Below, in pieces: positions 691 to 46,541 of a stretch of 48,302 bases of DNA (positions within the stretch are counted from its first letter, which is position 1; every line of letters starts with the position of its first letter). Both the position numbers and the translations under genes were made by a program. Under the pieces are notes generated by a model. It had not been told where the DNA came from, searched no databases, and saw only the letters and a program-made list of their open reading frames with translations. The DNA is from Escherichia phage vB_EcoD_Opt-719: sequence record OL539451.1. One strand, given 5' to 3'.

Positions 691-2255
691 ATACATTAGC
701 ATGGGAGGAGATGACGCCAGCCGAAAAGCTGGCAGTTAAGGCGCTATCCACTCACAGCTTCGAGGCATTCCTTCGCGTATGGTTCCAGTTATCGCAGGGT
801 GAGAGATACATCCCTAACTGGCATCATAAATACCTTTGCCGAATCATTGACGAGGTTATTAGTGGGGAGCGCAGGGATACCATCATTAACGTAGCTCCTG
901 GGGCCGGTAAAACCGAGATTACATCTATTCACTTTCCGGTCTACTCAATGATCAGGCTACCAAAGGTTAGGAACCTTAGCTTGTCATTCTCAGACAGTCT
1001 GGTGAAGCGTAACTCCAAGCGTGTTCGCGACCTAATCAAGTCCCCTGAGTTCCAGGAACTATGGCCTTGCAAGTTTGGCACGTGCAAGGATGATGAAATT
1101 CAGGTTCTTGATGAGAGTGGAAAGGTTAGATTCGAAGCTATATCGAAAGCAATTGGCGGTCAGATTACTGGTGCAAGGGGTGGATACATTACAGATAGCT
1201 ACAGCGGCTGCTTGATGCTGGATGACCCCGACAAACCAGACGACATGCTCAGCAAGGTAAGGCGTGAGGCTGTGCACGTTTTACTCAAGAATACCATCCG
1301 CTCACGTAGGGCTAGTAGCGTTAAAGGTAAAGCTACGCCGATTCTGTCAATTCAGCAAAGGCTTCATACGCAGGATTCAACGTGGTTCATGACTTCTGGC
1401 GGTATGGGTATCGACTTTGATGTAGTGAAGATACCAGCGCTGGTTAATGAAGACTATGTGAACGAGCTTCCTGACTGGATTCGTGAGCAGTTCGAGAAGG
1501 ACGTGCTTTCATCTGAATCAGTTGAGCGTGATGGGGTCAGGTACTATAGCTATTTCCCTCAAAAGGAATCCGTGCATGATTTGATGGCAATGTGGGAATC
1601 AGACCCGTACACATTCCTAAGCCAGTACCAACAATCACCAGTAGCTCTAGGTGGAAACCTGATCAACGTCGATTGGTTCGTAAGACTTGATGAGAATAAC
1701 AGGCCGCCAGTCAAGTATGACTACCGATTCATTACTGCCGATACTGCCATGACTACGAAGAGTTATAGCGACTACTCTGTGTTACAGCTGTGGGGTCGTA
1801 AGGGTAACAAGCTTTACCTTCTGGACATGGTAAGAGGTAAGTGGGAAGCGCCTGAGCTTGAGCAAACTCTTCTGGACTTTGAGAGTAAGCACAGAGCCAC
1901 CAGTAAAGCGGACGGTATCTTACGCAAGGTTATTATCGAGAAAAAGGCATCTGGTATCGGTCTTATCCAGTCAGCGGGTCGGACGATGCGAACTCCTATC
2001 GAGCCTTTCGTTCCTGATACAGATAAGTTGACCAGGGTGATGAGCGCATTGCCACAAATTAAGGCGGGTAACGTAATTCTGCCAGACTCTGCTCCATGGC
2101 TTACATCTTTGCTAACTGAGTTCTCAGCATTCACTGCTGATGATTCTCATCCCCATGATGACATTGTGGATACCACAACGATGGCTATCAACTGTGAACT
2201 AAACTTAGCGGACGATCCAAGGGCTAGGTTGATGAGGTTAGCAGGTGTTAGATAG
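687..2255 (+). CDS. terL: terminase large subunit
   Basis: 522 aa; P-loop-like VAPGAGKTE near N-terminus, acidic nuclease-like C-terminal half; sits between terS-like and portal genes. Confidence 0.8.
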   Translation: MNTLAWEEMTPAEKLAVKALSTHSFEAFLRVWFQLSQGERYIPNWHHKYLCRIIDEVISGERRDTIINVAPGAGKTEITSIHFPVYSMIRLPKVRNLSLSFSDSLVKRNSKRVRDLIKSPEFQELWPCKFGTCKDDEIQVLDESGKVRFEAISKAIGGQITGARGGYITDSYSGCLMLDDPDKPDDMLSKVRREAVHVLLKNTIRSRRASSVKGKATPILSIQQRLHTQDSTWFMTSGGMGIDFDVVKIPALVNEDYVNELPDWIREQFEKDVLSSESVERDGVRYYSYFPQKESVHDLMAMWESDPYTFLSQYQQSPVALGGNLINVDWFVRLDENNRPPVKYDYRFITADTAMTTKSYSDYSVLQLWGRKGNKLYLLDMVRGKWEAPELEQTLLDFESKHRATSKADGILRKVIIEKKASGIGLIQSAGRTMRTPIEPFVPDTDKLTRVMSALPQIKAGNVILPDSAPWLTSLLTEFSAFTADDSHPHDDIVDTTTMAINCELNLADDPRARLMRLAGVR

Positions 2256-2269
2256 CACGAATTGCTAAA
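2252..2269 (+). promoter_or_regulatory. promoter-cassette motif copy (ATAGCACGAATTGCTAAA)
   Basis: inverted repeat TAGCA-N5-TGCTA; contains terL TAG stop; followed by GGATGG, TATAAT, A-rich leader and GAGAGGAG RBS before ATG 2325. Confidence 0.5.
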
Positions 2270-2324
2270 GACAATAGCCACGGATGGCATATAATTAACT
2301 CACTTAAACGAGAGGAGATAGTAA

Positions 2325-2681
2325 ATGTTTAAAGCTAAATTTGTAAATTACAAAACACCAGCATCTGGTTATATTGGTATTTTCACTCCTGGTAGGGAGT
2401 ACAAACTAGATGTCATTGAGAATGACAGATATTATAGAACATACGATGATTACGGCGTAGAGGTTAAGTTCAATTCACTTTTTTTAGATAATTATGTTTT
2501 TGAGCGAGTTTCAGATTCCGAGCTGTTTGACATGATTGAGGAGCCAGCAAGCCTAAAGTATTATATCAATGGCAACTTGGTGCAAAAAAGCTACTTCTAC
2601 GAGTTAATTGGCGAGCTAAATGAGGCTGATAGACTTGGCGCCAAAGTGTCTTCAGTCAAATTTGAAATCAAGTTCGAGTAA
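2325..2681 (+). CDS. hypothetical protein (118 aa), moron-like
   Basis: own promoter cassette upstream and rho-independent terminator downstream; inserted between terL and portal. Confidence 0.5.
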   Translation: MFKAKFVNYKTPASGYIGIFTPGREYKLDVIENDRYYRTYDDYGVEVKFNSLFLDNYVFERVSDSELFDMIEEPASLKYYINGNLVQKSYFYELIGELNEADRLGAKVSSVKFEIKFE

Positions 2682-2701
2682 TCAAAACTCTGTGATACAC
2701 T

Positions 2702-2725
2702 AGCCCCTACTCAGGGGCTTTTTTA
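2702..2725 (+). terminator. rho-independent terminator
   Basis: hairpin AGCCCC-loop-GGGGCT followed by TTTTTT. Confidence 0.7.
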
Positions 2726-2738
2726 TTGGAGAAATTAC

Positions 2739-23928: not shown

Positions 23929-23947
23929 GCTCCTCAACTTGAGGAGC
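23929..23947 (+). promoter_or_regulatory. perfect 19-bp palindrome GCTCCTCAAcTTGAGGAGC (operator or hairpin)
   Basis: 9-bp arms around one central base, ~20 bp upstream of Rha-like gene ATG; second inverted repeat ATCTACC-N7-GGTAGAT at 23896-23916. Confidence 0.4.
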
Positions 23948-23966
23948 AAGGATAAGAGAGAAGATA

Positions 23967-24593
23967 ATGAACTTAATCAATACCAAGAAAGAAATGACCA
24001 TGACGACAACTGAGATTGCTAAGATTGTTGGTCAGCGACACGATAACTTAATGAATGATGTTAAATCAATGTACCTTGAGTTGTATGGTGAAAATCATTC
24101 TCCTGAGATTCAGGAGATTAAAATTCACAACAACAGAAGCCAAAAAATTGCAATTCTTGATAAAAAACACACACTATGCCTTGCTGCAAAGTACAGCGCA
24201 AAGGTTAGAATGAACATGATCGAGAAGATTGAGAGCCTTGAGCAGGAAAACAAATTACTGAAAGAGCATATGGCTAAGATGGTTTCAATTGACGAGATCA
24301 AAGTTTATAAGATAGAAGCTGCGTCAGCAAAAGCTGCACAGCACAGAGCTGAAGATAACTATTACGCAATTGAGAAGTTCATGTTTAAGAACATGGATAA
24401 GTGCGGAAATCCTGCAGAACTTGATGAGCAATACTTCGATGTTAAATTCGAGTCAAATCGTTACCATGACTCTCAAGAGGTTGTTTACAAGTACCAGGCC
24501 CAGCTTGAGGTTGCTTGCGAGAAGTTAAAGGCCAAAGATGAGCTGATTGCTAATCTGGTAGACAAGAATAGCGAGATTCTTAAGTTGAAATGA
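23967..24593 (+). CDS. Rha-family-like phage regulatory protein
   Basis: N-terminal TTEIAKIVGQRHDNLMNDV resembles Rha-domain signature; coiled-coil-like C-terminal half. Confidence 0.5.
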   Translation: MNLINTKKEMTMTTTEIAKIVGQRHDNLMNDVKSMYLELYGENHSPEIQEIKIHNNRSQKIAILDKKHTLCLAAKYSAKVRMNMIEKIESLEQENKLLKEHMAKMVSIDEIKVYKIEAASAKAAQHRAEDNYYAIEKFMFKNMDKCGNPAELDEQYFDVKFESNRYHDSQEVVYKYQAQLEVACEKLKAKDELIANLVDKNSEILKLK

Positions 24594-25824: not shown

Positions 25825-26266
25825 TATTTTTGAGTATATAGATGGATGCATAATATGGCGTGCTAGTGGTAATGTTGCTGGTTACAAACGAAAGGATGGT
25901 TATGTGATTGTGACAATAAATGGTAAGAAAATACTAGCGCATCGGATAATATACGAAATGAATAACGGAGATATAGAGCCAGGTATGCAAATTGACCATA
26001 TTGACCACAATCCATCAAACAACAGGATTGAAAACCTTAGGGTGGTTAACCACCAGGAGAACCAATCCAATAAGTCAAAGCAGTCAAATAACACTTCAGG
26101 GGTTACTGGCGTTTGGCTACATAAGAAATCTGGAAGGTTTGTAGCTGAAATAATGGTTGAAAAGAAGAAGATACATATAGGCTACTTTGATGACAAGCTG
26201 AATGCGGCAAAGGCTAGAAAGGATGCTGAAATTAAGTTTGGGTTTCATAAAAATCATGGAAAATAG
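25811..26266 (+). CDS. HNH homing endonuclease with AP2-like DNA-binding domain
   Basis: HNH motif DHIDHNPSNNRIENLRVVNHQEN; C-terminal GVTGVW...GRFVAEI...IHIGYF AP2-like segment; inserted between exonuclease and Erf-like genes. Confidence 0.8.
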   Translation: MNWHDIFEYIDGCIIWRASGNVAGYKRKDGYVIVTINGKKILAHRIIYEMNNGDIEPGMQIDHIDHNPSNNRIENLRVVNHQENQSNKSKQSNNTSGVTGVWLHKKSGRFVAEIMVEKKKIHIGYFDDKLNAAKARKDAEIKFGFHKNHGK

Positions 26267-26280
26267 CACGAATAGCTAAA
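26261..26280 (+). promoter_or_regulatory. promoter-cassette motif copy
   Basis: AAATAGCACGAATAGCTAAA; contains TAG stop of HNH gene; TATAGT and CATCGACAACGAGAGGA leader downstream. Confidence 0.5.
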
Positions 26281-26333
26281 ACAACATTAAATCGGTGAGG
26301 TATAGTTACCTCATCGACAACGAGAGGAAAAGT

Positions 26334-26984
26334 ATGAATACCAGCGACAAAAACACAAACGTTTTAAAGGCTCTATTTGAAGCTAAGAGCAAGTTTGCCA
26401 AGGCTGAAAAGTCAAAGCAGAACTCGCACCTCAAGAACAAATATGCAACATTAGATGACGTACTCGCAGCTGTAGAGCCTGGATTGGAGGATAGCGGTCT
26501 TGTGATGTTCCAGAGCATGATTGAGTCAGAAGTTGCAAATCAGATTAAGGTTGAGACTAAGATTTATCATGCTGAGTCTGCTGAATGGGTTTCTTTCCTG
26601 ACTATCGTTCCGTTGGCTAAAAATGACTGCCAGGGAACCGGCTCGTCATTAACGTACGCTCGACGCTACGCTATTACGGCAGCTCTCGGTCTTAGTCAGG
26701 CTGATGATGACGGCAATCTTGCAGTCAAGAGCGTCAAGGACTGGCGTAAAGATGTGGAAAAAGCAGAGTCTCGCGATGAACTTGTAGAGGTTTACAAGGC
26801 TTGTAAATCACAAGCTGATGCAGCAACGTGGGGTATTGTAGAGAAGGCCATCATCGAAAAGCAGGCGGAGATTAAGATGGCATCTGCGAGCGGGTTCAAT
26901 CCAGCTAAACCAAAAGAAGTAACTAAAGTTGTTGCAAATGCACCGAGTGAAGCTGTAGAATCACAATCAATCGAACGGTTCTAA
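26334..26984 (+). CDS. Erf-like single-strand annealing protein
   Basis: KALFEAKSKFAKAEKSKQNSHLKNKYATLDDVLAAVEP and TYARRYAITAALGL resemble ERF-family motifs; start ATG 26334 with GAGAGGA RBS (track GTG 26295). Confidence 0.55.
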   Translation: MNTSDKNTNVLKALFEAKSKFAKAEKSKQNSHLKNKYATLDDVLAAVEPGLEDSGLVMFQSMIESEVANQIKVETKIYHAESAEWVSFLTIVPLAKNDCQGTGSSLTYARRYAITAALGLSQADDDGNLAVKSVKDWRKDVEKAESRDELVEVYKACKSQADAATWGIVEKAIIEKQAEIKMASASGFNPAKPKEVTKVVANAPSEAVESQSIERF

Positions 26985-31665: not shown

Positions 31666-31685
31666 CGATAGCACTTTTTGTTAAA
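31666..31685 (+). promoter_or_regulatory. promoter-cassette motif copy
   Basis: CGATAGCACTTTTTGTTAAA then GATGGCTGTTATTATAAC and GTCAATCGAACGAAC leader before helicase ATG. Confidence 0.5.
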
Positions 31686-31747
31686 CATTGTCTTTGATGG
31701 CTGTTATTATAACGTCAATCGAACGAACATGAAAGGCATTTGAGAAC

Positions 31748-33691
31748 ATGACTATGCGATTGAAATCAATACAAAAACAAATTGAAGAACTAGGCAAAGA
31801 TAAGATTAAAGAGATTCAGGAAAAATTCACATCATCAAATGGCATGGTTCCTTACAGCTATCAGTGCGTGATGTATGACGAGATCGCCAAGCGCATTGGT
31901 AAATATAAATACCCATTCATCGCTATGGCTTCAGTATCCGCTGGTAAGACTCTGGTTTTCGCCATGGTCGCAAAGCGTTGCTCTGAACTTGGTTTGCCGA
32001 TGCTTTTACTTGCGAGACAGGCTGAGCTTGTTAGCCAGAGCGCCTCTGAAATTTCAGACTACGGCGTTCCTAACTCTGTCTATTGTTCAGGCCTTGGCAT
32101 TAAGTCCTCTTATTTCCCTGTAATTGTTGGCTCTGAAGGTACAGTTGTTGGTGGCCTTGATAAGGCGCTTGGTGACTTCTGCCCCGCAGTAGTCGCAATA
32201 GATGAATGTCACATGGTAGATGACCAGGATATCGCTGAAGCAATAGACAACAATGAGACATCTCAGCAAGCGAGAGATAAAGGACGAAGCCAGTACACAA
32301 TAATTATCCTTACATTGATGGAGAGATGCCGCGCTAAGTATGGTCGTGAATTGAGAATATTTGGCCTGACTGGTTCTCCTTTCCGCGGGACCGCGCCAAT
32401 TGTTGTAGAGAACCTTAAGGAACTTGGATTCTGGCGTGAAGCAGCGACTAACATTGATACCAACTATCTGGTTGAGTTTGGCTCTGTTGTTCCTACAAAT
32501 TTCGGGTCTACTGATGGTGTTGGCTATGACCTATCTGAGTTTGATACCTCAGCTGATGATGGTGTTCAGGACTTCACTAAATCCCAGCTAGAAGCAATGG
32601 AGAAGAAGATTCAGCAGTCGGGCACAATGACAGCTGAGATTATGAAGAAGGTGTGGTTGGCAGCTAAAGAACGAAACGGTGTTCTCGTGACGTGCGCTGG
32701 TGAGCGCCATTGCAAGGAGGCTGCAAGCTATCTTCCTGAAGGTGAAACTTACTGCATAATTACTGGAAAAACTGGTGAGAAGCAGCGTAAGGAACTACTG
32801 GATAAGTGCTTCACTGGAGAGATTAAATATTGCTTCCAGGTTCAGGCGCTTACTACTGGGGTTAACGTTCCAACATGGGATACTAGCGTAATTCTTCGCA
32901 AGATTGGCAGCCTAACTCTTCTAGTCCAACTTCTAGGTCGTGGAATGCGCAAACTGAAGAAGCTACATGAAGACAAGGGAATGGTTAAGAATGACCATTT
33001 AGTTTTAGATTTCGCTGGAACTATGGACTCGATGGCTTCACTGTACTTCAATCCCATTCTTGAGCAAGCTCAGTATCAGCTACGGAAGAGTAACGGCAAG
33101 GAGACTAAGCAGTGTCCAGTTTGCGGAACTGAGAACAGCTTCTTTGCTCGCCGCTGTATGCATGTTGACGAAAGCAATAATCGATGTGAATACTTCTGGG
33201 TTAGTCGCACATGCGAAGACCAGAAAGACCCTCGCACTGGTAAAGTTATAGTTAAAGGATGCGGGGTTCAGAATGACGTTGCAGCTAAGATTTGCAGGGG
33301 CTGTGATTGCACATTACTTGACCCGAACCTAAAGTTAAGCGGGAAACATTACAGAAAAAACGATTGGTTTGACGTTGTTGATTTTAAGGTTGGACTAACA
33401 AAGAACCAATCAGGAATCATCTATAACTATGTGCTTGATGATGGCATGGGCGGAACCTTCAAGGCTTATGAGGTTTTCTTCGTAGAGTCTGACCATAGAG
33501 TATGTAAAACTCTCTGGCTGAATAATGGAATTAAAGGTCACGTAGTTGATATGAATGCCAAGCGATATATGGCTGCATATCGAAATGCTCGCAAGATTAT
33601 GGAGTACGCGCAGTACATTCAGGCCCCGAAGCGAGTAACACACCGCAAGACCGCTAAAGGCGGAGATAACATGGCAAATAAGGAGTTCTGA
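31748..33691 (+). CDS. SF2 DNA helicase (DEAH-like) with C-terminal zinc ribbon
   Basis: Walker A SVSAGKTLV, DECH box, C-terminal CPVCGTEN...C...C...C cysteine cluster. Confidence 0.7.
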   Translation: MTMRLKSIQKQIEELGKDKIKEIQEKFTSSNGMVPYSYQCVMYDEIAKRIGKYKYPFIAMASVSAGKTLVFAMVAKRCSELGLPMLLLARQAELVSQSASEISDYGVPNSVYCSGLGIKSSYFPVIVGSEGTVVGGLDKALGDFCPAVVAIDECHMVDDQDIAEAIDNNETSQQARDKGRSQYTIIILTLMERCRAKYGRELRIFGLTGSPFRGTAPIVVENLKELGFWREAATNIDTNYLVEFGSVVPTNFGSTDGVGYDLSEFDTSADDGVQDFTKSQLEAMEKKIQQSGTMTAEIMKKVWLAAKERNGVLVTCAGERHCKEAASYLPEGETYCIITGKTGEKQRKELLDKCFTGEIKYCFQVQALTTGVNVPTWDTSVILRKIGSLTLLVQLLGRGMRKLKKLHEDKGMVKNDHLVLDFAGTMDSMASLYFNPILEQAQYQLRKSNGKETKQCPVCGTENSFFARRCMHVDESNNRCEYFWVSRTCEDQKDPRTGKVIVKGCGVQNDVAAKICRGCDCTLLDPNLKLSGKHYRKNDWFDVVDFKVGLTKNQSGIIYNYVLDDGMGGTFKAYEVFFVESDHRVCKTLWLNNGIKGHVVDMNAKRYMAAYRNARKIMEYAQYIQAPKRVTHRKTAKGGDNMANKEF

Positions 33692-34080
33692 TGATTAAGG
33701 TATTTTACGATAAGACAAGCACGGACAAGGCCAAAGAGTTTGTACACCAGGTTAACTGTATCGCATGGGTTCGCCATAACCACCCTGAGATATTTGCATG
33801 GCACGTGAAGAATGAAGGCTTAAAGTCAATCGGCACTGCAGTGAAGGATAAGCAGGAGGGCGTAATCAAGGGAGTGTCGGATATATTACTGATCGGGCCA
33901 AAAGGATTTGGAGCAATAGAACTTAAGCGAGCAATAAAATCAGATAGCAAAGTTTCGAAGGAGCAAAAGGAGTTTCTTGAAAAGGTATCAGAAACAGGCG
34001 GTTACGCAGCAATCTGCTACGGATTCGAAATGTTTAAACTGGCAATTGAGGATTATCTATCAAATAGCACGAATTGCTAA
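33691..34080 (+). CDS. putative VRR-NUC-like nuclease
   Basis: 129 aa; PD-(D/E)XK-like core GVSDILLIGPKGFGAIELKR; ATG overlaps helicase stop (ATGA). Confidence 0.45.
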   Translation: MIKVFYDKTSTDKAKEFVHQVNCIAWVRHNHPEIFAWHVKNEGLKSIGTAVKDKQEGVIKGVSDILLIGPKGFGAIELKRAIKSDSKVSKEQKEFLEKVSETGGYAAICYGFEMFKLAIEDYLSNSTNC

Positions 34081-34081
34081 A
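34063..34081 (+). promoter_or_regulatory. promoter-cassette motif copy
   Basis: AAATAGCACGAATTGCTAAA; supplies TAA stop (C-terminal NSTNC) of upstream gene; GGATGG, TGTATTAT and CATCGAAACGAAA downstream. Confidence 0.5.
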
Positions 34082-34146
34082 GACGAAAACCAAGGATGGT
34101 GTATTATCACTTCATCGAAACGAAACGCACAAATGAGGCAAACAAA

Positions 34147-34470
34147 ATGAAAAAGTTAATTATCGCAACTATCCTGATGGCGGCAGCAAGTGTTAATGCA
34201 GACGCGAAAGCTAACAACTGTCATGACATCGTTCAGTACGCTTACAACCTTGCAGTTAACGAATGGGGCGCTAACAAAACTGATGTGGTTAATGCTAAAA
34301 CTGTCAGTCTCTACCTGGATACATGTGAAATTGCTATCAAATCACGAGGCACTTACACTAAAGATGAACTTACAGCTAAGTATGATTCAGTAAAAACAAG
34401 CACTAAATCAGAGATGGATGTTCAGGATATTGTAATCCTTGTATCTAGAATCTCTTACGATAAGGCATAA
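34147..34470 (+). CDS. secreted/periplasmic protein (107 aa), hypothetical
   Basis: Sec-type signal peptide MKKLIIATILMAAASVNA with AxA cleavage site; start ATG 34147 (track TTG 34096). Confidence 0.5.
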   Translation: MKKLIIATILMAAASVNADAKANNCHDIVQYAYNLAVNEWGANKTDVVNAKTVSLYLDTCEIAIKSRGTYTKDELTAKYDSVKTSTKSEMDVQDIVILVSRISYDKA

Positions 34471-35355: not shown

Positions 35356-35609
35356 ATTTACCTGGACTTGATTTTGATGAGAGTAAGTATCCAGTTGTCT
35401 TTTTTGGTGAGAAGCCTTACCGGAAGATCCCTTTTGCTGATTGGATTCCACCAGACTATCTTGATGTGCTGGTTCAGATTGAAGTTGGTAAGGCTGAACT
35501 CATGTATTACTCACCAGGCTGCAACATGATGATGCCTAGTGAATACTCTCCGGCAATAGCCGCGCTTGAAACTGAGTTTCTTGATTACTGGCTAAAAGAA
35601 GTTAAATAG
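35352..35609 (+). CDS. hypothetical protein (85 aa)
   Basis: ATG overlaps upstream stop (ATGA); stop TAG lies inside promoter-cassette motif. Confidence 0.45.
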   Translation: MNLPGLDFDESKYPVVFFGEKPYRKIPFADWIPPDYLDVLVQIEVGKAELMYYSPGCNMMMPSEYSPAIAALETEFLDYWLKEVK

Positions 35610-35623
35610 CACTTTTTGTTAAA
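35604..35623 (+). promoter_or_regulatory. promoter-cassette motif copy
   Basis: AAATAGCACTTTTTGTTAAA; GGATGG, CGTATAGT and CATCGAAACGAGAGAAG leader downstream. Confidence 0.5.
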
Positions 35624-35677
35624 ACGCACCGCCAAGGATGGCGTATAGTGTGTTCATCGAAACGAGAGAAGCTTTAG

Positions 35678-35746
35678 ATGAAAACATTACTACCGTTGAT
35701 GGCTATGCCATTAACCTTTATAATCATGTACTTCATAATCTGCTAA
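35678..35746 (+). CDS. hypothetical leader micro-ORF (22 aa, hydrophobic)
   Basis: occupies the usual first-cistron position of the promoter cassette (GAGAGAAG RBS); MKTLLPLMAMPLTFIIMYFIIC; precedes the HTH-phosphoesterase gene. Confidence 0.3.
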   Translation: MKTLLPLMAMPLTFIIMYFIIC

Positions 35747-35760: not shown

Positions 35761-36894
35761 ATGGCTATTGCTAAAATTACGAACGAACAACTTAAAGAAG
35801 AACTAGCTAACGGTATGACTAACAAATCAATCGCAGAGAAGTACGGTATGAATATTCGTAACGTAGAACTGCGTCGCAGCAAGCTGGCTAAGGCTGGGGA
35901 TGGTCACGGTCGCGATGTTAGTAACCTAATTCCTCAAGGCTACATGGTTAAGGGTGTATCTAGCCTCGTTGATAATGATGGAAATGTAAAGTTGCAGTGG
36001 GTTAAGTCCTCCATTGATGCAGAAAAGCTTGAAGAGATTATGAATCAAGCGCGAGAGGCATTTTCTAGTGAGTTACCAAAAGAAAAAGCAGTGAAGTCTG
36101 AAGGTCTGGATTTTGATGAAGATACTTTAGCCATGTATCCAGTGTTTGACCTTCATATTGGCGCGATGGCTCATAAGCATGAGTGTGGAGAAAACTACGA
36201 CACAGCAACAGCTGAGAAAGTAATGAATGACTACTTTGATTACGCTGTTCAGAAAGCTCCAAATTCAAAGAATGCGGTACTAGTTCTTGGAGGAGATTTA
36301 CTTCACTATGATTCTCTAGAGGCTAAAACTCCAGCTAGTGGTCACATCCTTGATAGTGACAGTCGCTACGCTAAAATTGTTTATGTTTGCATACGTTCGG
36401 TTCGTCGTGCAATTAGAAACATGCTTAGCAAACATGAAAATGTAGAGGTTAAAGTTATATCCGGGAATCATGATGAAAGTGGTATGGTTTGGTTGCGAGC
36501 TGCACTTGCGGCATTTTATGAGGAAGAACCACGCGTAAGTATTGATGTTAGCCCCGCGGCAATGATGGTAACTAAGTTTGGTTCTACAATGCTCGGGTTC
36601 ACTCACGGCCATCAAATGCGGAAAGCTGATACTCGCCTTACGGTTATGGCTACTGACTGGCGACGTGACTTTGGCTTAAGTGATTATGTATACACCCACT
36701 CAGGCCACTGGCATTCACAGAAGATTACAGAAACAAATCTTGGTATTGATGAGGTTCATGGTCAGCTTGGTTCACCAGATGCATATAGTGCGAATGGTGG
36801 ATGGCGCTCACAAAGGCAGGCTGCGGTAATCATATATCATAAAGAGTTTGGTGAAGTTGGTCGCTTTATCTGTCGCCCTGAAATGTTTAAATAA
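35761..36894 (+). CDS. calcineurin-like metallophosphoesterase (Mre11/SbcD-like motifs) with N-terminal HTH
   Basis: ordered motifs DLHIG, GGDLLH, GNHDE, THGH, GHWH; N-terminal HTH-like NKSIAEKYGMNIRNVELRRSKL. Confidence 0.6.
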   Translation: MAIAKITNEQLKEELANGMTNKSIAEKYGMNIRNVELRRSKLAKAGDGHGRDVSNLIPQGYMVKGVSSLVDNDGNVKLQWVKSSIDAEKLEEIMNQAREAFSSELPKEKAVKSEGLDFDEDTLAMYPVFDLHIGAMAHKHECGENYDTATAEKVMNDYFDYAVQKAPNSKNAVLVLGGDLLHYDSLEAKTPASGHILDSDSRYAKIVYVCIRSVRRAIRNMLSKHENVEVKVISGNHDESGMVWLRAALAAFYEEEPRVSIDVSPAAMMVTKFGSTMLGFTHGHQMRKADTRLTVMATDWRRDFGLSDYVYTHSGHWHSQKITETNLGIDEVHGQLGSPDAYSANGGWRSQRQAAVIIYHKEFGEVGRFICRPEMFK

Positions 36895-36911
36895 TAGCAC
36901 TTTTTGCTAAA
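36893..36911 (+). promoter_or_regulatory. promoter-cassette motif copy with adjacent hairpin
   Basis: AATAGCACTTTTTGCTAAA immediately followed by hairpin GCCCTCCGGGGC and TTTT. Confidence 0.45.
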
Positions 36912-36960
36912 GCCCTCCGGGGCTTTTGAAAGGTGTCAATTACAGACTGAGGAATCAAAA

Positions 36961-37158
36961 ATGATTACAGAGATGATTTTAGTTGCAAGCCTGTCGTCTC
37001 CATTGGCATCTCATCAGTATTGTGAGCTTGGCAAAGAGATTTATCACGATGGAGTGGAAGTAAACACAGTTGTTGAGTGGCTAAATCACAGTACGATGAA
37101 CATTGATGATAAGAAGGTTGTCCTTGAGTGCTATCTGGTGGAGGCAAATAAAGTTTAA
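36961..37158 (+). CDS. hypothetical protein (65 aa)
   Basis: start ATG 36961 (track TTG 36904); GAGGAA RBS. Confidence 0.4.
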   Translation: MITEMILVASLSSPLASHQYCELGKEIYHDGVEVNTVVEWLNHSTMNIDDKKVVLECYLVEANKV

Positions 37159-37176
37159 ATAGCACGAATTGCTAAA
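37157..37176 (+). promoter_or_regulatory. promoter-cassette motif copy
   Basis: AAATAGCACGAATTGCTAAA; TATAGT and CATCGAAACAAACGAGAGGA leader downstream. Confidence 0.5.
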
Positions 37177-37234
37177 ACACAAATTAAAAGATTGGGTATA
37201 GTTACTCCATCGAAACAAACGAGAGGATACAAAT

Positions 37235-37420
37235 ATGGCTAAGTTCACACAATCAGATGCACAAATCGAAGTTAAAGATGTTGGTTTTGGTAAGGCATTC
37301 AAGATTGCGCAGGCGTACGGGTCTAGCGAAGAAGATGTGAAAGTTGACACTATTAACCTTACTGCTAAGAATGCACGTGAGATCGCTTATGCAATCCTTG
37401 CAGCACTTGGAGAAAAATGA
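37235..37420 (+). CDS. hypothetical protein (61 aa)
   Basis: GAGAGGA RBS; first cistron after promoter cassette. Confidence 0.45.
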   Translation: MAKFTQSDAQIEVKDVGFGKAFKIAQAYGSSEEDVKVDTINLTAKNAREIAYAILAALGEK

Positions 37421-39437: not shown

Positions 39438-41021
39438 TCACCCCAGCAGTCGTGGATTAATGTAAACCTTATCACCAATCAGGCAGGTGTAGTTTTTCTC
39501 ATCAAGCATCGGAAGTAAATGGTCTTTAATCTTAGCCATTACGCCAGCCTGAGCCTCAAACGGTCTAACCTTACGTGCCGCTTCATAGAGTGATCGCAAC
39601 CCCACCACTCCTTTACTGTTCTTTCCTTGCTTAATAAGAATATCAATTAGCTTGTTCATCTCTGCATTATCACCAGCGTGACCAGCAGCATTAGCGGAAG
39701 ACAAGTAAGTCTTACTCAGTTCTTCAAACATAAGAAGAGCTTCTTGCATCGTTTCAAGCCCAATCTCCCTGGACTTCTGCGGACTCCCTCCGTTTGGATT
39801 AAACCAGTTACGGATAGTGTGAAGAACTGCCGCTATCCTGATTACCTGCTTATCCATTTTACCTAACGCTCCGCGCAACATTGTGTGCGAGTACTTACCG
39901 CCATCTGCAAGGTGCGGCTCCATTTCCTGACGAGCACGGTTGAGGTGCTTCATTGCTGAATTACTGACAGTTAGTTTTACATCTTGCTCGCTCATTATTT
40001 CATGAACAAGACGAAAGTAATCTGCCTTTAATCCACCATCAATTGGTTTATATGTTGACTCGCCCTCATCATCAACAAACACACGCTCACCAAGGAATGA
40101 CTTCTCGCGCACAAGAAGGAAACGCTCTGATACACCGATACCGCGAGCGCCAGCATTCATGATTGCGACGATTGTTTCATCCTGCGCAATTACAGAAATG
40201 CAACCCATAGCAATAAAGCTCATGTTGTTCTCTGCGTTCGCACGCGCGATAGATACGTTACCAGCATCCCAGGCCTTCAGAACAAGTTCGCTGTTAGTTT
40301 TCTTCGAGCCATCACCGTAAGTCATACCAAGAAGTGAGTTAACACTTGTCGCTTCATCAGAAATCACGGAGAAGTTGCCCTGGCGGTTGTTGATTCGCGC
40401 AAGACCTTCCGGGGTAGTATCAGATACCGGAAACACAATGTCGCACAGCTTTTCTAACTTCTCTTCCAACTCCTCTTTATCTTCGAATAATCCAGCCATC
40501 TCAGATGGTGACTTCTCTTGCTTCATTTCTTTTGCCAGGGCTGACAATTTAGCCATAATCTTCTTACGGTCACGCTTGCGTAATTCGTTCAATCGCTCAG
40601 TCTCAGCAATCATTGGCGCTAGTGCGAGTGAGTTAATAGCTGACTTACCAGTTGATGGAGGCTGACTGGTTACTACGTACAGCGCGGTAGGCTGCTGAGT
40701 TCCATGATACTCAACCGTAAAGCGACCAAGCATTGCTGCTGAAATACACCCAAGGAAGTGCATGTAAGCTGAAGACTCTGGGAACTGAACTGAGCGTGCG
40801 ATATTGCTTGATAATTTACCAACGACATCACAATCATTTCCTAGCGAGATGACCGGATATTTGTCACCAGTTGAATCAATTTCTACCGGAGCCTTCCAGA
40901 ATGATGCACTCTGTCGATAACCATTGGCATTAATAGCAACTCGCAATGGTGGTAAATTTTCAGCTGCCGCAACAGACATTACTTGTTCGACTGATAATTT
41001 ATCTTCGTTAAAATCAAACAT
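39438..41021 (-). CDS. P-loop NTPase with N- and C-terminal modules shared with mini-paralog 43328..43870
   Basis: 527 aa; deviant Walker A QPPSTGKS (aa ~120-127) and Walker B FSVISDEAT (aa ~218-224); N-terminal 45 aa and C-terminal ~75 aa ~60-65% identical to the 180-aa plus-strand protein. Confidence 0.55.
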   Translation of the reverse strand: MFDFNEDKLSVEQVMSVAAAENLPPLRVAINANGYRQSASFWKAPVEIDSTGDKYPVISLGNDCDVVGKLSSNIARSVQFPESSAYMHFLGCISAAMLGRFTVEYHGTQQPTALYVVTSQPPSTGKSAINSLALAPMIAETERLNELRKRDRKKIMAKLSALAKEMKQEKSPSEMAGLFEDKEELEEKLEKLCDIVFPVSDTTPEGLARINNRQGNFSVISDEATSVNSLLGMTYGDGSKKTNSELVLKAWDAGNVSIARANAENNMSFIAMGCISVIAQDETIVAIMNAGARGIGVSERFLLVREKSFLGERVFVDDEGESTYKPIDGGLKADYFRLVHEIMSEQDVKLTVSNSAMKHLNRARQEMEPHLADGGKYSHTMLRGALGKMDKQVIRIAAVLHTIRNWFNPNGGSPQKSREIGLETMQEALLMFEELSKTYLSSANAAGHAGDNAEMNKLIDILIKQGKNSKGVVGLRSLYEAARKVRPFEAQAGVMAKIKDHLLPMLDEKNYTCLIGDKVYINPRLLG

Positions 41022-41057
41022 CTTATTCTCTCTATTTGTTATCGATGGGTATAAATA

Positions 41058-41075
41058 TACCCGCCGAAGCGGGTA
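41058..41075 (-). other. hairpin within promoter cassette (ACCCGC-CGAA-GCGGGT)
   Basis: perfect 6-bp stem between motif copy and ATPase gene RBS. Confidence 0.4.
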
Positions 41076-41081
41076 GTGTCA

Positions 41082-41100
41082 TTAACAAAAAGTGCTATTT
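41082..41100 (-). promoter_or_regulatory. promoter-cassette motif copy (minus orientation)
   Basis: reverse complement AAATAGCACTTTTTGTTAA; abuts stop of 41099..41452. Confidence 0.5.
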
Positions 41101-41452
41101 ACTTATACTGAGCTTCAAACTTATACATCCCATAACCAACATCATAGCCAACTTCATCATCGCGAGTAAGTTGCCAGCCGTCACCTTCGTTGTCGTAGAT
41201 GTAGCCAGCATTACGACCTAATCCAGCGTGCATGGAGACCTGGTAACGCTTACCTTCAGTAAATGATTTCTTGAGCGGATTGCTGTGGTCAACCCTGGTG
41301 CACAGTAGTGTCTTTGTCTTAATGTAGTGACCGTTCATGTCTATATTAACCCATTTGCCATCGACCTTAATTTGTTCAACTCCATCTTTTGCTCGAGCTT
41401 TAAATAATTTGTTATCGCTGCTTACCCAGTTCTTTGTGATGGTAGTGGCCAT
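41099..41452 (-). CDS. hypothetical protein (117 aa)
   Basis: AAAGGAAAG RBS; first gene after motif/hairpin cassette on minus strand. Confidence 0.45.
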   Translation of the reverse strand: MATTITKNWVSSDNKLFKARAKDGVEQIKVDGKWVNIDMNGHYIKTKTLLCTRVDHSNPLKKSFTEGKRYQVSMHAGLGRNAGYIYDNEGDGWQLTRDDEVGYDVGYGMYKFEAQYK

Positions 41453-41517
41453 TATTACTTTCCTTTTATGCGTGTCATTTCAGTGATTTCAATATACATC
41501 ATAAGCCCCGAAGGGCT

Positions 41518-41536
41518 TTAACAATTAGTGCTATTT
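41518..41536 (-). promoter_or_regulatory. promoter-cassette motif copy (minus orientation) with adjacent hairpin
   Basis: reverse complement AAATAGCACTAATTGTTAAA followed by hairpin GCCC-CGAA-GGGC. Confidence 0.45.
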
Positions 41537-41923: not shown

Positions 41924-42138
41924 GCTAATACCTCGATTTCTTCTTCCGTAACGCTGAATTCTTCACCTTCATAAACAGCCGTGATGCCATCAATTACAAC
42001 ATCGCGCTTCGCATCAATGAAGTACTCACCTTCAAGTTCAAACACCTCAACCTCTTCACCAACTTCATAGCCCATCTCAGCCAGGCTTAATGCATCTTCG
42101 TCAAACTTGATTTCGTTGTTGATAATAATCGCTTTCAT
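41920..42138 (-). CDS. hypothetical acidic protein (72 aa), paralog of 46598..46810
   Basis: start ATG 42138 with GAGGAG RBS (track TTG 42177); MKAIIINNEIKFDED...GYEVGEEVEV versus MKIKIIDVDYVTDDE...GFEIGDVVEV. Confidence 0.45.
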   Translation of the reverse strand: MKAIIINNEIKFDEDALSLAEMGYEVGEEVEVFELEGEYFIDAKRDVVIDGITAVYEGEEFSVTEEEIEVLA

Positions 42139-42191
42139 CTGATATCTCCTCGTTGTCGATGTGATAACTATAACCAATCAGGGCTGAATGG

Positions 42192-42211
42192 TCATTAGCA
42201 AAAAGTGCTAT
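42192..42211 (-). promoter_or_regulatory. promoter-cassette motif copy (minus orientation)
   Basis: reverse complement AATAGCACTTTTTGCTAATG with TATAGT and CATCGACAACGAGGAG leader toward 41920..42138. Confidence 0.5.
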
Positions 42212-42540: not shown

Positions 42541-42812
42541 GTTATCCCGTAACCATGATTATCCAAGATATTGGTGATATTTTTTTGATATTGCGCGGCG
42601 CATAAAGATTTAGATAAAGAGATAGGGATGCAAGTGGGGTGGAGAAAATGGCTTAACAGACCATAACGGCAATAACAGCCTTGATATGACTAGCGTCAGC
42701 ATGTAACAATTTAGCATAACGTGCGATTACTGAGTTGAACGTGTAAATAATGCTTGCGACATTCACCCATCATGGTAAGATGCTCTCACACTAAACGAGA
42801 GGAGTAGTAAAA

Positions 42813-43328: not shown

Positions 43329-43870
43329 TGTTTGATTTCAAAGAGGATAAACTTACTTATGAGCAGGTGTTAGCAGCAGCAGCGGCAGACAATCTGCCTC
43401 CCTTGCGAGTATCAATAATTGCAAATGGTTACCGACAATCTGCAAATCTATGGCCTGAACTGGATAAGGTCAAAGATTTCGAACTAGACACTGGAGCTTT
43501 AAAGATTATAGAAATCCTCATTAATCAAGGAATGAGCAGTAAAGGTGTCGTTGGTCTCGGGTCACTATATAATACAGTAAGGAAAGTTAAACCATTCGAA
43601 GGTAAAAGTGAAGTAATTATGGATATCAGAGATGTCATCATCCCAAACCTTGATAAGCTTGGCTATGCATGCCTAATCGGAGATAAGATTTACATCAACC
43701 CTAAACTGCTTGATGGCAACCAGGACTGGACTTACAAGGTTAAGCTGCTGGAAGATGATTTCAACATCGACGATTGCGAGAAGATTGTTGACGAGATTAC
43801 TATCAAGGCAATTGATGAGCAAATCGAGAGGCTCAAGCGGAAGAAGAAGTACCTCCTGACCGGTAAATAG
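43328..43870 (+). CDS. ATPase-less mini-paralog of the 39438..41021 P-loop protein
   Basis: 180 aa; MFDFKEDKLTYEQVLAAAAADNLPPLRVSIIANGYRQSA and KGVVGLGSLY...CLIGDKIYINPKLL match the N- and C-termini of the 527-aa protein; ATG overlaps upstream TAA. Confidence 0.55.
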   Translation: MFDFKEDKLTYEQVLAAAAADNLPPLRVSIIANGYRQSANLWPELDKVKDFELDTGALKIIEILINQGMSSKGVVGLGSLYNTVRKVKPFEGKSEVIMDIRDVIIPNLDKLGYACLIGDKIYINPKLLDGNQDWTYKVKLLEDDFNIDDCEKIVDEITIKAIDEQIERLKRKKKYLLTGK

Positions 43871-43884
43871 CACGAATTGCTAAA
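43865..43884 (+). promoter_or_regulatory. promoter-cassette motif copy
   Basis: AAATAGCACGAATTGCTAAA; contains TAG stop; GGGATGCG, TTATAGT and CATCGAAACGAAA downstream. Confidence 0.5.
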
Positions 43885-43948
43885 CCAGTTCCGCAGGGAT
43901 GCGTTATAGTTATTTCATCGAAACGAAATGGTTAATAGAGGAAGGCAA

Positions 43949-44107
43949 ATGAGTTATTACGAAGTTATCGACACTGGCAATAAATCATTACTTGGCTCAA
44001 AGCGCTTTAAATGTACCGGCCAAGGGTTCACTGGATACGGCTTTGACGAGAAAGATGCCATCCTGGAATGGAAAGAAGCTAAATACATTGGGGAGTTCGA
44101 CGAATGA
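43949..44107 (+). CDS. hypothetical small protein (52 aa)
   Basis: first cistron after promoter cassette (GAGGAAGG RBS); below ORF-track cutoff. Confidence 0.35.
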   Translation: MSYYEVIDTGNKSLLGSKRFKCTGQGFTGYGFDEKDAILEWKEAKYIGEFDE

Positions 44108-44708: not shown

Positions 44709-45535
44709 CAATTCACTTCCATGGCTCCCCTATAACGGGGGGCAAGGGCGATGCACTTGCTCGGACCGCGTATACAAATGGCGGTGCTTTCGTGTCATTC
44801 GCCCACCCGCAGCAGATAGAATTGGCGTTTAAGGTAGCGAATGCAGTATGCATAGATAATGGTGCGTTCTCTAAGAAGAATAGCGGCAAAGCTACTGACT
44901 GGCATAAATTCTATAATGACTTTTTACCCAGATTTATCGACAGAGAAAAGTTACGATTCTTTGTTATACCTGATGATATCAGCGGGTGCGACAAAGAGAA
45001 CGACAGATTAATAAGCGAACTTCCATTACACCTAAAGCACAAAGGAGCTCCAGTCTGGCATATGCATGAGAGCTTAGACAGGCTAGTCCACCTTGCCAAC
45101 GAGTGGGAATACATGTGTATAGGCTCGTCAGGCGAGTACTACTCTATCCGTTCAGAGAAATGGAAGCGGCGCATGAATGATGCCTTTAACGCTCTAATTC
45201 AGAGGGGCTACTCAGCAAAAATTCACGGCCTCAGAATGCTGGATGGTCGAGTTCTTGGCAACTACCCACTGGATCAGGCTGACTCAACAAACCTGGCTAT
45301 TAATGCGCCTAAGTGGATATGCAAATATATAGATATGACCATTGAGGCGTGCCGAGCTCAGACTCACAGAGACGCATGGATTTCAACCTCAGATCCGAAG
45401 TTTGCACTTGAGCAATTAATCGCAGACGGCGGCACAAGGGAGCAGATGCTGGCACAGAGATGCGCGATACTCAGGAATTGCATAGAAGCAGTAAGGCCAC
45501 CATCAAGGGATTCATGGAATAGCACGAATTGCTAA
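44705..45535 (+). CDS. hypothetical enzyme, tentatively TGT/DpdA-like transglycosylase
   Basis: 276 aa; GTG start overlapping upstream TGA (GTGA); motif VCIDNGAFS loosely resembles TGT catalytic DSGGFQ; call rests mainly on gene context; unverified. Confidence 0.3.
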   Translation: MTIHFHGSPITGGKGDALARTAYTNGGAFVSFAHPQQIELAFKVANAVCIDNGAFSKKNSGKATDWHKFYNDFLPRFIDREKLRFFVIPDDISGCDKENDRLISELPLHLKHKGAPVWHMHESLDRLVHLANEWEYMCIGSSGEYYSIRSEKWKRRMNDAFNALIQRGYSAKIHGLRMLDGRVLGNYPLDQADSTNLAINAPKWICKYIDMTIEACRAQTHRDAWISTSDPKFALEQLIADGGTREQMLAQRCAILRNCIEAVRPPSRDSWNSTNC

Positions 45536-45536
45536 A
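45517..45536 (+). promoter_or_regulatory. promoter-cassette motif copy
   Basis: GAATAGCACGAATTGCTAAA; supplies TAA stop (C-terminal NSTNC) of upstream gene. Confidence 0.5.
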
Positions 45537-45592
45537 CAATAAATCGGGTAGTCAGCTATGATTACCCTATCAACAACGAAGAGGAAATGATT

Positions 45593-45805
45593 ATGGATAC
45601 TGGAATTTTACGCATTGACGATGTTCACTTTGACCAGGCTGAGGTCAGTGTCACCAAGTTAACCTTTCGAGGTAATGTTGTTAGCCTTGACTTCGATCCT
45701 GACGACTACGGCGACGGTCAAACACTTATGCAATACTCACCTGTTGCGGCCCGCAAATTAGCGGCGGCATTAATCCTGGCGGCAGAAGAGGCGGAAGAGC
45801 AATGA
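45593..45805 (+). CDS. hypothetical protein (70 aa)
   Basis: start ATG 45593 with GAGGAA RBS (track ATG 45587 has no spacing); Ala-rich acidic C-terminus. Confidence 0.4.
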   Translation: MDTGILRIDDVHFDQAEVSVTKLTFRGNVVSLDFDPDDYGDGQTLMQYSPVAARKLAAALILAAEEAEEQ

Positions 45806-46041
45806 TTACCATTAACCTGTCTTATGAACAAGCTGCAGAGCTAAAAGATATAATGCAGCACTCACTCATTAACAAGAATTATAGCTGCACAGAGGTGCTA
45901 TCAGAAGCGATTACACAGATTCAGAACCAACAGATAGCTGACGATGATGAACTCCCATGGGACACTGATACCGCCTGGAGCCGATACGAGCAGATTTGCA
46001 CAGCGCTATCAGGTTGTCAGCTGGCTAGCCAATACAAATGA
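45802..46041 (+). CDS. hypothetical protein (79 aa)
   Basis: ATG overlaps upstream TGA (ATGA). Confidence 0.4.
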   Translation: MITINLSYEQAAELKDIMQHSLINKNYSCTEVLSEAITQIQNQQIADDDELPWDTDTAWSRYEQICTALSGCQLASQYK

Positions 46042-46163
46042 CAATATACGAACACAAATTCAGTAGCAGGGGTATTGATATGCTCCTGCATTATGTAGAC
46101 GAGAGATACGCCATGTTGATGCAGAAGACGCATGGCGGCACAATAACGAGGATTGAGATATGA
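46038..46163 (+). CDS. hypothetical micro-ORF (41 aa)
   Basis: ATG overlaps upstream stop (ATGA); translationally coupled chain. Confidence 0.25.
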   Translation: MTIYEHKFSSRGIDMLLHYVDERYAMLMQKTHGGTITRIEI

Positions 46164-46294
46164 AGATTCATAATGGCGAATACAGTAATTTTTACATTGA
46201 TGAGTGCGTTGAACTATATGAAGGATATGGCGAGCCAACTGCGTGCCATGGAGATGAGCTTGGTATCAGCTTTCCCGAAGAGCGTGAGGATTGA
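46160..46294 (+). CDS. hypothetical micro-ORF (44 aa)
   Basis: ATG overlaps upstream stop (ATGA); GAGG RBS. Confidence 0.25.
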   Translation: MKIHNGEYSNFYIDECVELYEGYGEPTACHGDELGISFPEERED

Positions 46295-46297
46295 TAT

Positions 46298-46540
46298 ATG
46301 AGCAAGTACAACCGAGAGATTATCGGCCTGGATGGAACGTTAACGACAGTCGATGTATATCGTGTTCTGGATGCATTCCAGGTAACAGACCCAGCAATTC
46401 AGCACGCAATCAAGAAAATGCTCTGTACTGGGTTGCGAGGCCACAAGGATTACCTCACCGACATTGATGACTCAATAGAATCACTTAGGAAAGCAAAGGA
46501 GCTTTACGGTCAGAAGAAGATAAATAGCACGAATTGCTAA
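46298..46540 (+). CDS. hypothetical protein (80 aa)
   Basis: track ORF; C-terminus NSTNC supplied by promoter-cassette motif. Confidence 0.45.
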   Translation: MSKYNREIIGLDGTLTTVDVYRVLDAFQVTDPAIQHAIKKMLCTGLRGHKDYLTDIDDSIESLRKAKELYGQKKINSTNC

Positions 46541-46541
46541 A
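46522..46541 (+). promoter_or_regulatory. promoter-cassette motif copy
   Basis: AAATAGCACGAATTGCTAAA; GGGATGCG and CTAAATCGAAACGAA downstream. Confidence 0.5.

Follow-up and report, generated by a model that had tools for sequence, protein, structure and literature searches.

Repeated promoter cassettes in a T1-like Escherichia phage resemble class II promoters of the host activators MarA, SoxS and Rob

T1-like phages are common in gut and sewage, occur as laboratory contaminants and are candidates for therapy, and standard promoter searches yield almost nothing in their genomes. Here, we describe a repeated promoter cassette in one such phage, Escherichia phage vB_EcoD_Opt-719. The stretch analyzed (sequence record OL539451.1; 48,302 nucleotides, hereafter the window) is a complete genome (48.3 kb) of a T1-like phage (Drexlerviridae, Rogunavirinae). 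Over its right 18 kb, it shares 100% identity with Escherichia phage Phleasolo, Klebsiella phage Opt-79 and Escherichia phage Sadiya, and approximately 84-87% with AKS96, Rogue1, Jk06 and others; the annotation of Sadiya transfers to the window at an offset of 9-11 bases. The cassettes, each headed by a 20-bp box, concentrate among the small genes toward the ends of the genome as well as in the replication region, and only the one at 2252 lies among structural genes. We take the genes that carry them to be early and middle genes, which are transcribed before phage proteins exist.

All 15 copies of the motif that were listed in a preliminary description of this sequence are present at their places, and the inverted repeat TAGCA-N5-TGCTA was written there correctly. 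The pattern given in its title, AAATAGCAC-N5-TG(C/T)TAAA, has no matches, even with two mismatches, because the spacer has four bases and not five. The corrected motif, ATAGCAC-N4-TG(C/T)TAA, has 14 exact matches in the window and 2 further matches with one mismatch. When up to two mismatches are allowed, 20 matches are found against 3.4 expected; the maximum in shuffled sequences was 9, and none of 100 shuffles attained 20. A 16th copy, absent from the earlier list (42708-42727, minus strand), is degenerate, and the copy at 23822 is degenerate in its TTGCTA part.

What follows the motif is also ordered. The succession proposed earlier was confirmed: motif, -10-like hexamer, CATCGAAAC-type leader, Shine-Dalgarno sequence and start codon. 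The hexamer is located 22 bp past the ...TA of the motif, i.e., 18 bp past the 20-mer, in 10 of the 16 copies, and 17-19 bp past the 20-mer in 14 of them. The predicted transcription start, the seventh base after the hexamer, is an A in 13 of 14 copies. One proposed component did not hold, since GGATGG is not a universal block. It corresponds to the loop and 3' arm of spacer hairpins whose stems are specific to the copy (GCCA/TGGC, CGCCA/TGGCG and CGCA/TGCG).

The same type of module always follows the motif in T1, TLS and Rtp, each of which has 14-19 copies, and the motif is identical across four subfamilies. A scan of viral contigs provided a family-wide set of 177 non-redundant copies; the contigs with several copies were all of T1-like size. 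The ungapped consensus of this set reads aAATAGCAC(T/G)(T/A)(T/A)TTG(C/T)TAAAAc, 16 variable bases, tGnTATAaT, six bases, CAtcgAAAc. Of the 177 copies, 137 have 22 bp between motif and -10 (18 bp after the 20-mer), and 153 have 21-23 bp. In the logo, the -10 reads TATAaT, and 77% of copies have a G at -14. The family logo thus describes a sigma-70 promoter whose -10 is often extended and whose start is CA, and the T of TAGCAC lies at -49; the occurrence of TGnTATAAT-N6-CA at a fixed distance from the motif supports the earlier view that these units are promoter cassettes.

The repeat itself was already known. A 21-nt direct repeat, aaATAGCACnnnTTGnTAAAA, described in a 2024 re-annotation of phage TLS is the same element; it has 21 copies there that run along transcription approximately 76 nt upstream of start codons and fall into A, T and G subgroups (PMC11447400). 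Similar repeats were noted in T1, Rtp and Rogue1; only three sigma-70 promoters were found in TLS, and the repeats were listed apart from promoters (PMC11447400). The authors left the function open, and their ideas included a stoperator, an enhancer site and an UP element (PMC11447400). The repeats of the window, with 14-16 copies, belong to this direct repeat family by their consensus (aaATAGCACnnnTTGnTAAAA), their direction with transcription, their G/T/A subgroups and their distance to start codons (approximately 76 nt in TLS vs 67-85 nt from the motif start in the window, where one copy lies at 145 nt). In contrast, the fixed 18-bp link to a -10 element and the marbox identity proposed below are not stated in the TLS paper (PMC11447400). 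They appear in no paper that we found by searching and are new here. A literature search also found no transcription start mapping or RNA-seq for Drexlerviridae.

The sequence of the box is close to that of a known host site. Read from one base earlier, the 20-mer is ATAGCAC(G/T)WWTTGYTAAAAC, i.e., ATAGCAC(G/T)WWTTG(C/T)TAAAAC. The published soxbox/marbox consensus of MarA, SoxS and Rob, which are paralogous host activators, is AYNGCACNNWNNRYYAAAYN (PMC2064960), and the MarA consensus used for genome-wide marbox searches is GCANNWWNTGNNAAA (gcannwwntgnnaaa) (PMC12052159). The window contains 6 exact matches to the 20-mer consensus AYNGCACNNWNNRYYAAAYN vs 0.04 expected (15 vs 0.08 on relaxing position 19); for the 15-mer MarA consensus, there are 12 exact matches vs 0.93 expected. 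All 16 boxes have at most two mismatches to the 20-mer consensus. Position 19 is also an A in micF of Escherichia coli. A search anchored solely on GCA, AA and TAnnnT 18 bp downstream regained the consensus at every specified position but 19; positions 8-10, 19 and 20, which are N or W in the consensus, varied most.

Host promoters of E. coli K-12, read directly, have the same layout. In micF, ACAGCACTGAATGTCAAAAC is followed by 18 bp and then by TAGAAT, in the orientation of the phage boxes; the gap from box to -10 is 18 bp in nfo and approximately 19 bp in fumC, and the modal gap in the phage is 18 bp. The box of the mar operon, read in reverse, is ATGCCACGTTTTGCTAAATC, which is near the T-type phage box ATAGCACTTTTTGCTAAAA. 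The cassettes of the window, T1, TLS and Rtp have boxes of two main subtypes whose differences are linked, GAA with TTGCTA and TTT with TTGTTA; AAA and TAA forms are rarer. At orthologous positions, for instance those of the helicase and dam cassettes, the subtype tends to stay the same across subfamilies; it may reflect differing preferences of MarA, SoxS and Rob, or just ancestry.

The position of the box agrees with that of a class II site, i.e., a box in forward orientation that overlaps the -35 region and is centered between -36 and -55 (PMC12052159). Such sites cluster near -41 in Salmonella, the micF site is at approximately -41, and class II marbox promoters have no -35 element. On the predicted starts, the phage boxes extend from -50 to -31 and are centered at -40.5, and the -35 position reads AAAACn or TAAAAC. 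The preliminary description had rightly judged the motif too distant to be a -35; it occupies the position of an activator, near -41. All 15 boxes with a recognizable downstream gene are on the strand of that gene, and the box at 42708 has no such gene. In the structure of Rob with RNA polymerase and micF, Rob makes contact with -47G and -45A, blocks the access of sigma region 4 to the -35 and also touches the alpha C-terminal domain; in the predicted numbering, the G and A of the phage GCAC are at -47 and -45, as are the bases contacted by Rob in micF. A two-hexamer sigma-70 scan of the window showed no enrichment (40 vs 37.4 expected) and picked up just 4 of the 16 cassettes, which is why earlier annotations missed these promoters.

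Phage cassettes and the micF, nfo and fumC class II promoters thus have in common a 20-bp asymmetric marbox-like site in forward orientation, a center near -41, 18-19 bp to a sigma-70 -10 element and no -35. They differ in use and in uniformity. The phage has approximately 15 boxes per 48 kb, as a general promoter architecture and not in scattered stress genes, and its boxes are nearer to the consensus than the host boxes examined and almost identical to each other, in two subtypes. In addition, hairpins and a conserved leader are built into the phage cassettes, unlike host class II promoters.

Functional information is available from T1, in which the Porf65 promoter was reported to be independent of the phage regulator Pir, and a Porf65-gfp fusion was active in uninfected E. 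coli. By mapping the published primers, we found that this reporter carries T1 4335-4435 (101 bp), which comprises one cassette only; therefore, a bare cassette is a promoter in uninfected E. coli. The Pdam fragment of T1 likewise contains a cassette.

On this basis (sequence match, orientation, spacing, no -35, no AraC-type gene found in the phage, and promoter activity of a minimal cassette from T1), we consider it probable that the cassettes are class II sigma-70 promoters activated by host MarA, SoxS, Rob or RamA. Binding and activation by MarA, SoxS and Rob are inferred, and the identity of the motif in four subfamilies fits a conserved host partner. In the proposed mechanism, the marbox would replace the -35, with its recognition elements GCAC at approximately -47 to -44 and TAAA at approximately -36 to -33, 18 bp upstream of a TATAGT-type -10, and the A of CATCGAAAC would be the first transcribed base. 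A host activator of the AraC/XylS type would bind the box as a monomer and recruit RNA polymerase via the alpha C-terminal domain and sigma region 4, as in micF complexes. Candidate activators would be Rob, whose expression is constitutive and high, MarA or SoxS when induced, and RamA as a further activator in Klebsiella, Salmonella and Enterobacter. Early and middle phage genes would then be expressed by unmodified host machinery and linked to the xenobiotic and stress state of the host. For the broader proposal, that the Drexlerviridae have wired nearly all of their early and middle promoters to MarA, SoxS, Rob and RamA, we see about even chances.

Several points weigh against activation by these host proteins. 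The phage box is tighter than the marbox consensus, with A at position 3 and TT at positions 11-12 nearly fixed, and could have a different or more specific partner. In unstressed cells, Rob is mostly held inactive, and MarA and SoxS are scarce without inducers, so reliance on them seems risky for an early promoter. Most T1 and TLS cassettes have an extended -10 and could act without an activator, in which case the box would be modulatory and not essential; in the window, the TGn extension is found in only 2 of 14 cassettes, and activator dependence should therefore exceed that of the T1 and TLS cassettes. The literature search found no binding, footprint, transcription-start or host-mutant data for these promoters. 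The searches for an AraC-type phage protein used a small profile and a Pfam scan of hypothetical proteins only. Finally, Pir of T1 alters the activity of cassette-bearing fragments, with Pdam up and Ppir down.

The last point leads to the possibility that the repeat is the operator of a phage regulator, either the Cro-like Pir homologue (31181-31663) or an unrecognized small protein, with class II activation at the cassettes and repression where the box is transcribed. We regard this as rather unlikely, although T1 Pir activates the cassette-bearing Pdam and represses its own promoter, whose transcript crosses the box of the helicase cassette. In the window, the helicase cassette lies in the divergent region common to the pir-like regulator, which places the motif within the pir 5' region, and a box is also found in this region in T1 and TLS; moreover, the repeat is multi-copy only in contigs of T1-like size, and the box is tighter than the host consensus. 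The properties of Pir itself argue otherwise. It has only a weak Cro-like helix-turn-helix (HTH), and its predicted recognition helix differs by subfamily (TRQAVEEW, SNQTVQGW and NLKTVWGW), in contrast to the invariant box. The latter is asymmetric and used one way, unlike the operator of a dimeric Cro-type HTH protein. Pir also represses PrecE, which has TGTAACA repeats but no box; Porf65, with a perfect box, is reported to be Pir-independent and is active without phage protein. The variable helix and the behavior of Porf65 both weaken Pir as the box-binding protein. T1 Orf65 has no homologue in the window, and the cassettes are densest in presumed early regions, where they would fire before any phage protein is made. 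Another candidate named earlier, the product of 35761-36894, is metallophosphoesterase-like and, with only a faint N-terminal HTH match (E 0.04), no clear regulator. A phage protein of the AraC type was rejected as the binder, as none was found: hmmsearch of the six-frame translation with a small profile gave no AraC/MarA-like open reading frame (ORF) (best E 0.87), and a Pfam scan of 46 hypothetical proteins gave no AraC-type HTH. The preliminary description had seen in the motif an activator or repressor site or a phage-specific element read by phage HTH proteins; the activator position stands, but reading by phage HTH proteins is not supported, as the motif is invariant in four subfamilies while the Pir helix varies, and in sequence, orientation and spacing the motif fits a host MarA/SoxS/Rob site instead.

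Other readings dispense with a dedicated regulator or give the repeat a different task. The box might be read by RNA polymerase alone, whose alpha C-terminal domain or sigma region 4 would contact it as an UP-like or otherwise unusual upstream element without the help of a transcription factor. The UP element was raised by the TLS authors (PMC11447400), and the fixed distance to the -10, the coverage of -52 to -31, where alpha and sigma region 4 are located, the A runs that flank the core and the activity of a minimal cassette in uninfected cells all agree with such a role. We nevertheless consider it improbable, because the invariant G/C-containing blocks (GCAC, TTG) are unlike the A/T-rich UP consensus, TTGCTA is too distant for a -35 at 22 bp from the -10, and the exact fit to an activator site in sequence and geometry would be a coincidence of approximately 21 bits. 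An UP element would be A/T-rich from -59 to -38 and free of invariant G/C blocks; in the phage sites, just the flanking A runs are UP-like. Still less probable is that the repeats are stoperator-like silencing sites, at which a repressor on intergenic copies would block initiation or elongation, e.g., in the carrier or pseudolysogenic state of T1. The TLS authors' comparison (PMC11447400) is apt insofar as the stoperators of mycobacteriophage L5 are also numerous asymmetric sites in short intergenic gaps, aligned with transcription and overlapping stop codons at gene ends, and an extrachromosomal lysogen-like state has been reported for T1. L5 stoperators, however, bind a phage repressor, silence transcription and are not phased with a -10, whereas the boxes of the window are phased with the -10 by a strict 18 bp that, like the CA start, is foreign to stoperators, and they occupy an activator position upstream of the predicted starts, outside the transcription units. 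No repressor gene was recognized in the window, and cassette fragments behave as promoters. Finally, the element could work in RNA, with a UAGCA/UGCUA stem and the following hairpin marking 3' ends or processing sites of read-through transcripts. The C/T variation preserves pairing as G-U (the TGTTA variant), true terminators follow some copies, and an unusually stable hairpin lies just downstream in 70% of copies (z below -2). We give this reading hardly any credence: the 5-bp stem is weak and has one variable position only, conservation reaches unpaired flanks and loop positions in the pattern of the marbox, the phasing is with a DNA element, the -10, and the downstream hairpins vary in register.

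Known promoter classes and regulator sites were also compared with the box. TTGCTA was rejected as a -35, as it is 22 bp from the -10 in 77% of copies and has no -10-like hexamer 16-18 bp downstream. Sigma-54 promoters have GG at -24 and GC at -12 in the consensus TGGCAC-N5-TTGCW, with invariant spacing. The likeness of TAGCAC...TTGCT to this consensus is superficial: TAGCAC-N3-TTGCT has AG for GG and its blocks are 2 bp too near each other, which excludes a sigma-54 promoter, and the phage boxes have a sigma-70 -10 at a fixed distance. Middle promoters of phage T4 likewise have no -35, an activator site in its stead upstream of a normal -10, and the TGCT core. They differ in that they need the phage proteins MotA and AsiA and in that the MotA box is centered at -30, 11-13 bp from the -10, whereas the box described here is centered near -41 and fits a host factor. 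Consensus sites of CRP, IHF, Fis, FNR, OxyR and ArcA did not fit. The consensus of Lrp, YAGHAWATTWTDCTR, matches both 5-bp arms, whereas the center and the conserved flanks do not agree with it; the marbox was preferred because it accounts for every conserved position as well as for the asymmetry and the spacing.

If activation by MarA, SoxS, Rob and RamA is correct, phage gene expression would read the xenobiotic state of the host, as set by bile salts, salicylate, superoxide or the mutations of mar-, ram- or sox-up resistant strains, and the many near-consensus boxes on replicating phage DNA might titrate the activators off host promoters. It would also be a clear case of a virulent phage that relies on a host transcription activator and not on its own factors. 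The hypothesis couples phage growth to regulators of intrinsic antibiotic resistance (AcrAB-TolC up, OmpF down) and is, for this reason, simple to test. Phage genes might be better expressed in resistant strains constitutive for mar, sox or ram, or under exposure to bile salts, which would bear on phage-antibiotic combinations. The receptor of TLS is TolC, itself a target of MarA, SoxS and Rob.

The class II marbox reading provides a promoter map with approximately 15 predicted starts in this genome (Table 1) and corrects several annotated start codons. Annotated starts of Sadiya fall inside predicted promoters at window positions 34096, 23453, 43928 and 35638-35757. Better starts, with Shine-Dalgarno sequences, are found at 34147, 23378 and 43949, and the 39-amino acid ORF at 35638-35757, which starts within a promoter spacer, may be spurious.

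Table 1. Marbox-like boxes and predicted cassettes in the window (PWM, position weight matrix).
Feature	Span	Strand	Marbox-like box	Gap or hairpin	-10	Predicted +1	Start codon	Remarks
Cassette after large terminase gene	2252..2327	+	2252-2271 (ATAGCACGAATTGCTAAAGA)	hairpin GCCA-cgga-TGGC 2277-2288	TATAAT 2290-2295	2302	ATG 2325	
Cassette before small lipoprotein/Cor genes	23376..23463	-	23444-23463	gap 19 bp	extended (TGC) TATAGT 23419-23424	23412	ATG 23378	
Cassette before Rha-like gene	23822..23969	+	23822-23841 (ATAGCACGATTAATCAAAAC)		TATAGT 23860-23865	23872	ATG 23967	micF-like RYYAAA = ATCAAA; structured leader of ~95 nt
Cassette before Erf-like recombinase gene	26263..26336	+	26263-26282	10-pair hairpin (one G-T) 26293-26316	TATAGT 26301-26306, within hairpin	26313	ATG 26334	
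Cassette before helicase gene	31668..31750	+	31668-31687, exact 20-mer consensus	gap 17 bp	TATTAT 31705-31710, after TGT	31717	ATG 31748	
Cassette	34064..34149	+	34064-34083		TATTAT 34102-34107	34114	ATG 34147	signal-peptide-like product; upstream protein ends NSTNC within motif
Cassette	35606..35680	+	35606-35625	hairpin CGCCA-agga-TGGCG 35630-35643	TATAGT 35644-35649	35656		downstream gene 35761-36894 or small ORF from 35678
Box and terminator	36894..36963	+	36894-36913	hairpin AAGCCC-tccg-GGGCTT and T run	none at proper distance		ATG 36961	
Cassette upstream of lysis gene block	37159..37237	+	37159-37178 (top PWM score, 36.1 bits)		TATAGT 37197-37202	37209	ATG 37235	
Cassette before 527-aa helicase-like gene	41019..41098	-	41079-41098	terminator-like hairpin CCCGC-ttcg-GCGGG in gap	TATATT 41054-41059		ATG 41021	
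Cassette	41450..41534	-	41515-41534	hairpin GCCC-ttcg-GGGC in 18-bp gap	TATATT 41491-41496	41484	ATG 41452	
First cassette of leftward early operon	42136..42211	-	42192-42211	gap 19 bp	TATAGT 42167-42172	42160	ATG 42138	
Additional box, status uncertain	42708..42727	-	42708-42727 (ATCGCACGTTATGCTAAATT), exact 20-mer consensus		none convincing			
Cassette, rightward early region	43867..43951	+	43867-43886, exact consensus	hairpin CGCA-ggga-TGCG 43892-43903	TATAGT 43905-43910	43917	ATG 43949	
Cassette	45519..45595	+	45519-45538, exact consensus	hairpin 45546-45567	TATGAT 45557-45562, within hairpin	45569	ATG 45587 or 45593	upstream protein ends NSTNC
Cassette	46524..46600	+	46524-46543, exact consensus	hairpin CGCA-ggga-TGCG 46549-46560	TACTAT 46562-46567	46574	ATG 46598	upstream protein ends NSTNC

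The excess stability of the hairpin between box and start, relative to shuffles, was measured in 137 well-phased copies of the family set, for which the mean z was -2.8; 70% of them carry such a hairpin. The commonest hairpin register is -24 to -1, which encloses the -10, and at least 6 consecutive pairs are formed there in 27% of copies, compared with approximately 1% in most other registers. In the window, hairpins at 26293-26316 and 45546-45567 enclose the -10 in this way and end at approximately -1, whereas those at 2277-2288, 35630-35643, 43892-43903 and 46549-46560 are spacer hairpins with covarying stems and an (A/C/G)GGA loop. As noted earlier for this sequence, a hairpin directly follows the copies at 36894 and 41534 (minus strand), and both hairpins are GC-rich terminators; full terminators within the 18-bp gap, which thus overlap the promoter, are located at 41054-41098 and 41491-41534 on the minus strand and at 36894-36930 on the plus strand. 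The copy at 36894 has no properly spaced -10 and is therefore probably a terminator with a remnant or non-promoter box. Some cassette stems of T1 and TLS attain 14-17 bp. Because the arms of these hairpins vary in sequence from copy to copy, selection seems to act on the structure and not on the sequence. The idea of one conserved hairpin surrounding the -10 was rejected, because several registers are mixed, which also accounts for the weak per-column covariation. As a guess, the hairpins may protect 3' ends or attenuate read-through from upstream.

Overlap of the motif with the ends of upstream genes is real and had been described as nearly always present. Comparison of gene ends with motif positions shows that the upstream gene ends in or at the motif for 11 of the 16 copies. 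Two of the three reading frames of the motif contain a stop codon (AAA-TAG and AAT-AGC-ACG-AAT-TGC-TAA). For this reason, the overlap is best seen as a packing by-product of genome compaction, and three unrelated proteins (33691-34080, 44705-45535 and 46298-46540) share the C-terminus NSTNC, as first described. An HNH gene upstream of the cassette at 26263 also ends within the motif.

Related sites occur elsewhere in the window. A non-coding AT-rich stretch of approximately 340 bp (23470-23810) separates two divergent cassettes; in it, GTTACA/TGTAAC is repeated several times, and there are short palindromes. Repeats of this kind are also found in T1 upstream of recE, a promoter repressed by Pir, and the stretch may serve as a replication origin or represent the true operator region of Pir. 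A marbox-like sequence, ATGGCACAAATGGTTAAACA (18574-18593), is separated from the start of the long tail-fibre gene by only approximately 24 nt, which leaves no room for a -10; it is kept at the same place in T1 (25019) and in TLS (direct repeat DR8). After the pir-like gene, a terminator on the minus strand (31148-31206) is preceded by a degenerate box, and the corresponding region of TLS (35178-35242, minus strand) has a perfect box. The loop of this terminator holds a -10-like CATAAT or TATCAT. Terminator and box would form a cassette-like unit before the primase gene, at which transcription would end and begin anew.

After the major capsid gene, at approximately 9610-9700, a degenerate box (ATAGCAATTATTGCTTACCA) and a terminator are followed by a TATATAAT promoter that has no box at the class II position. 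This promoter carries the same CAATCGAAAC leader, and the leader is therefore conserved independently of the box. In relatives, free-standing HNH endonuclease genes carry their own cassette (Rtp 6317, Rtp 21394 and T1 41954), which suggests that gene-plus-promoter units travel together.

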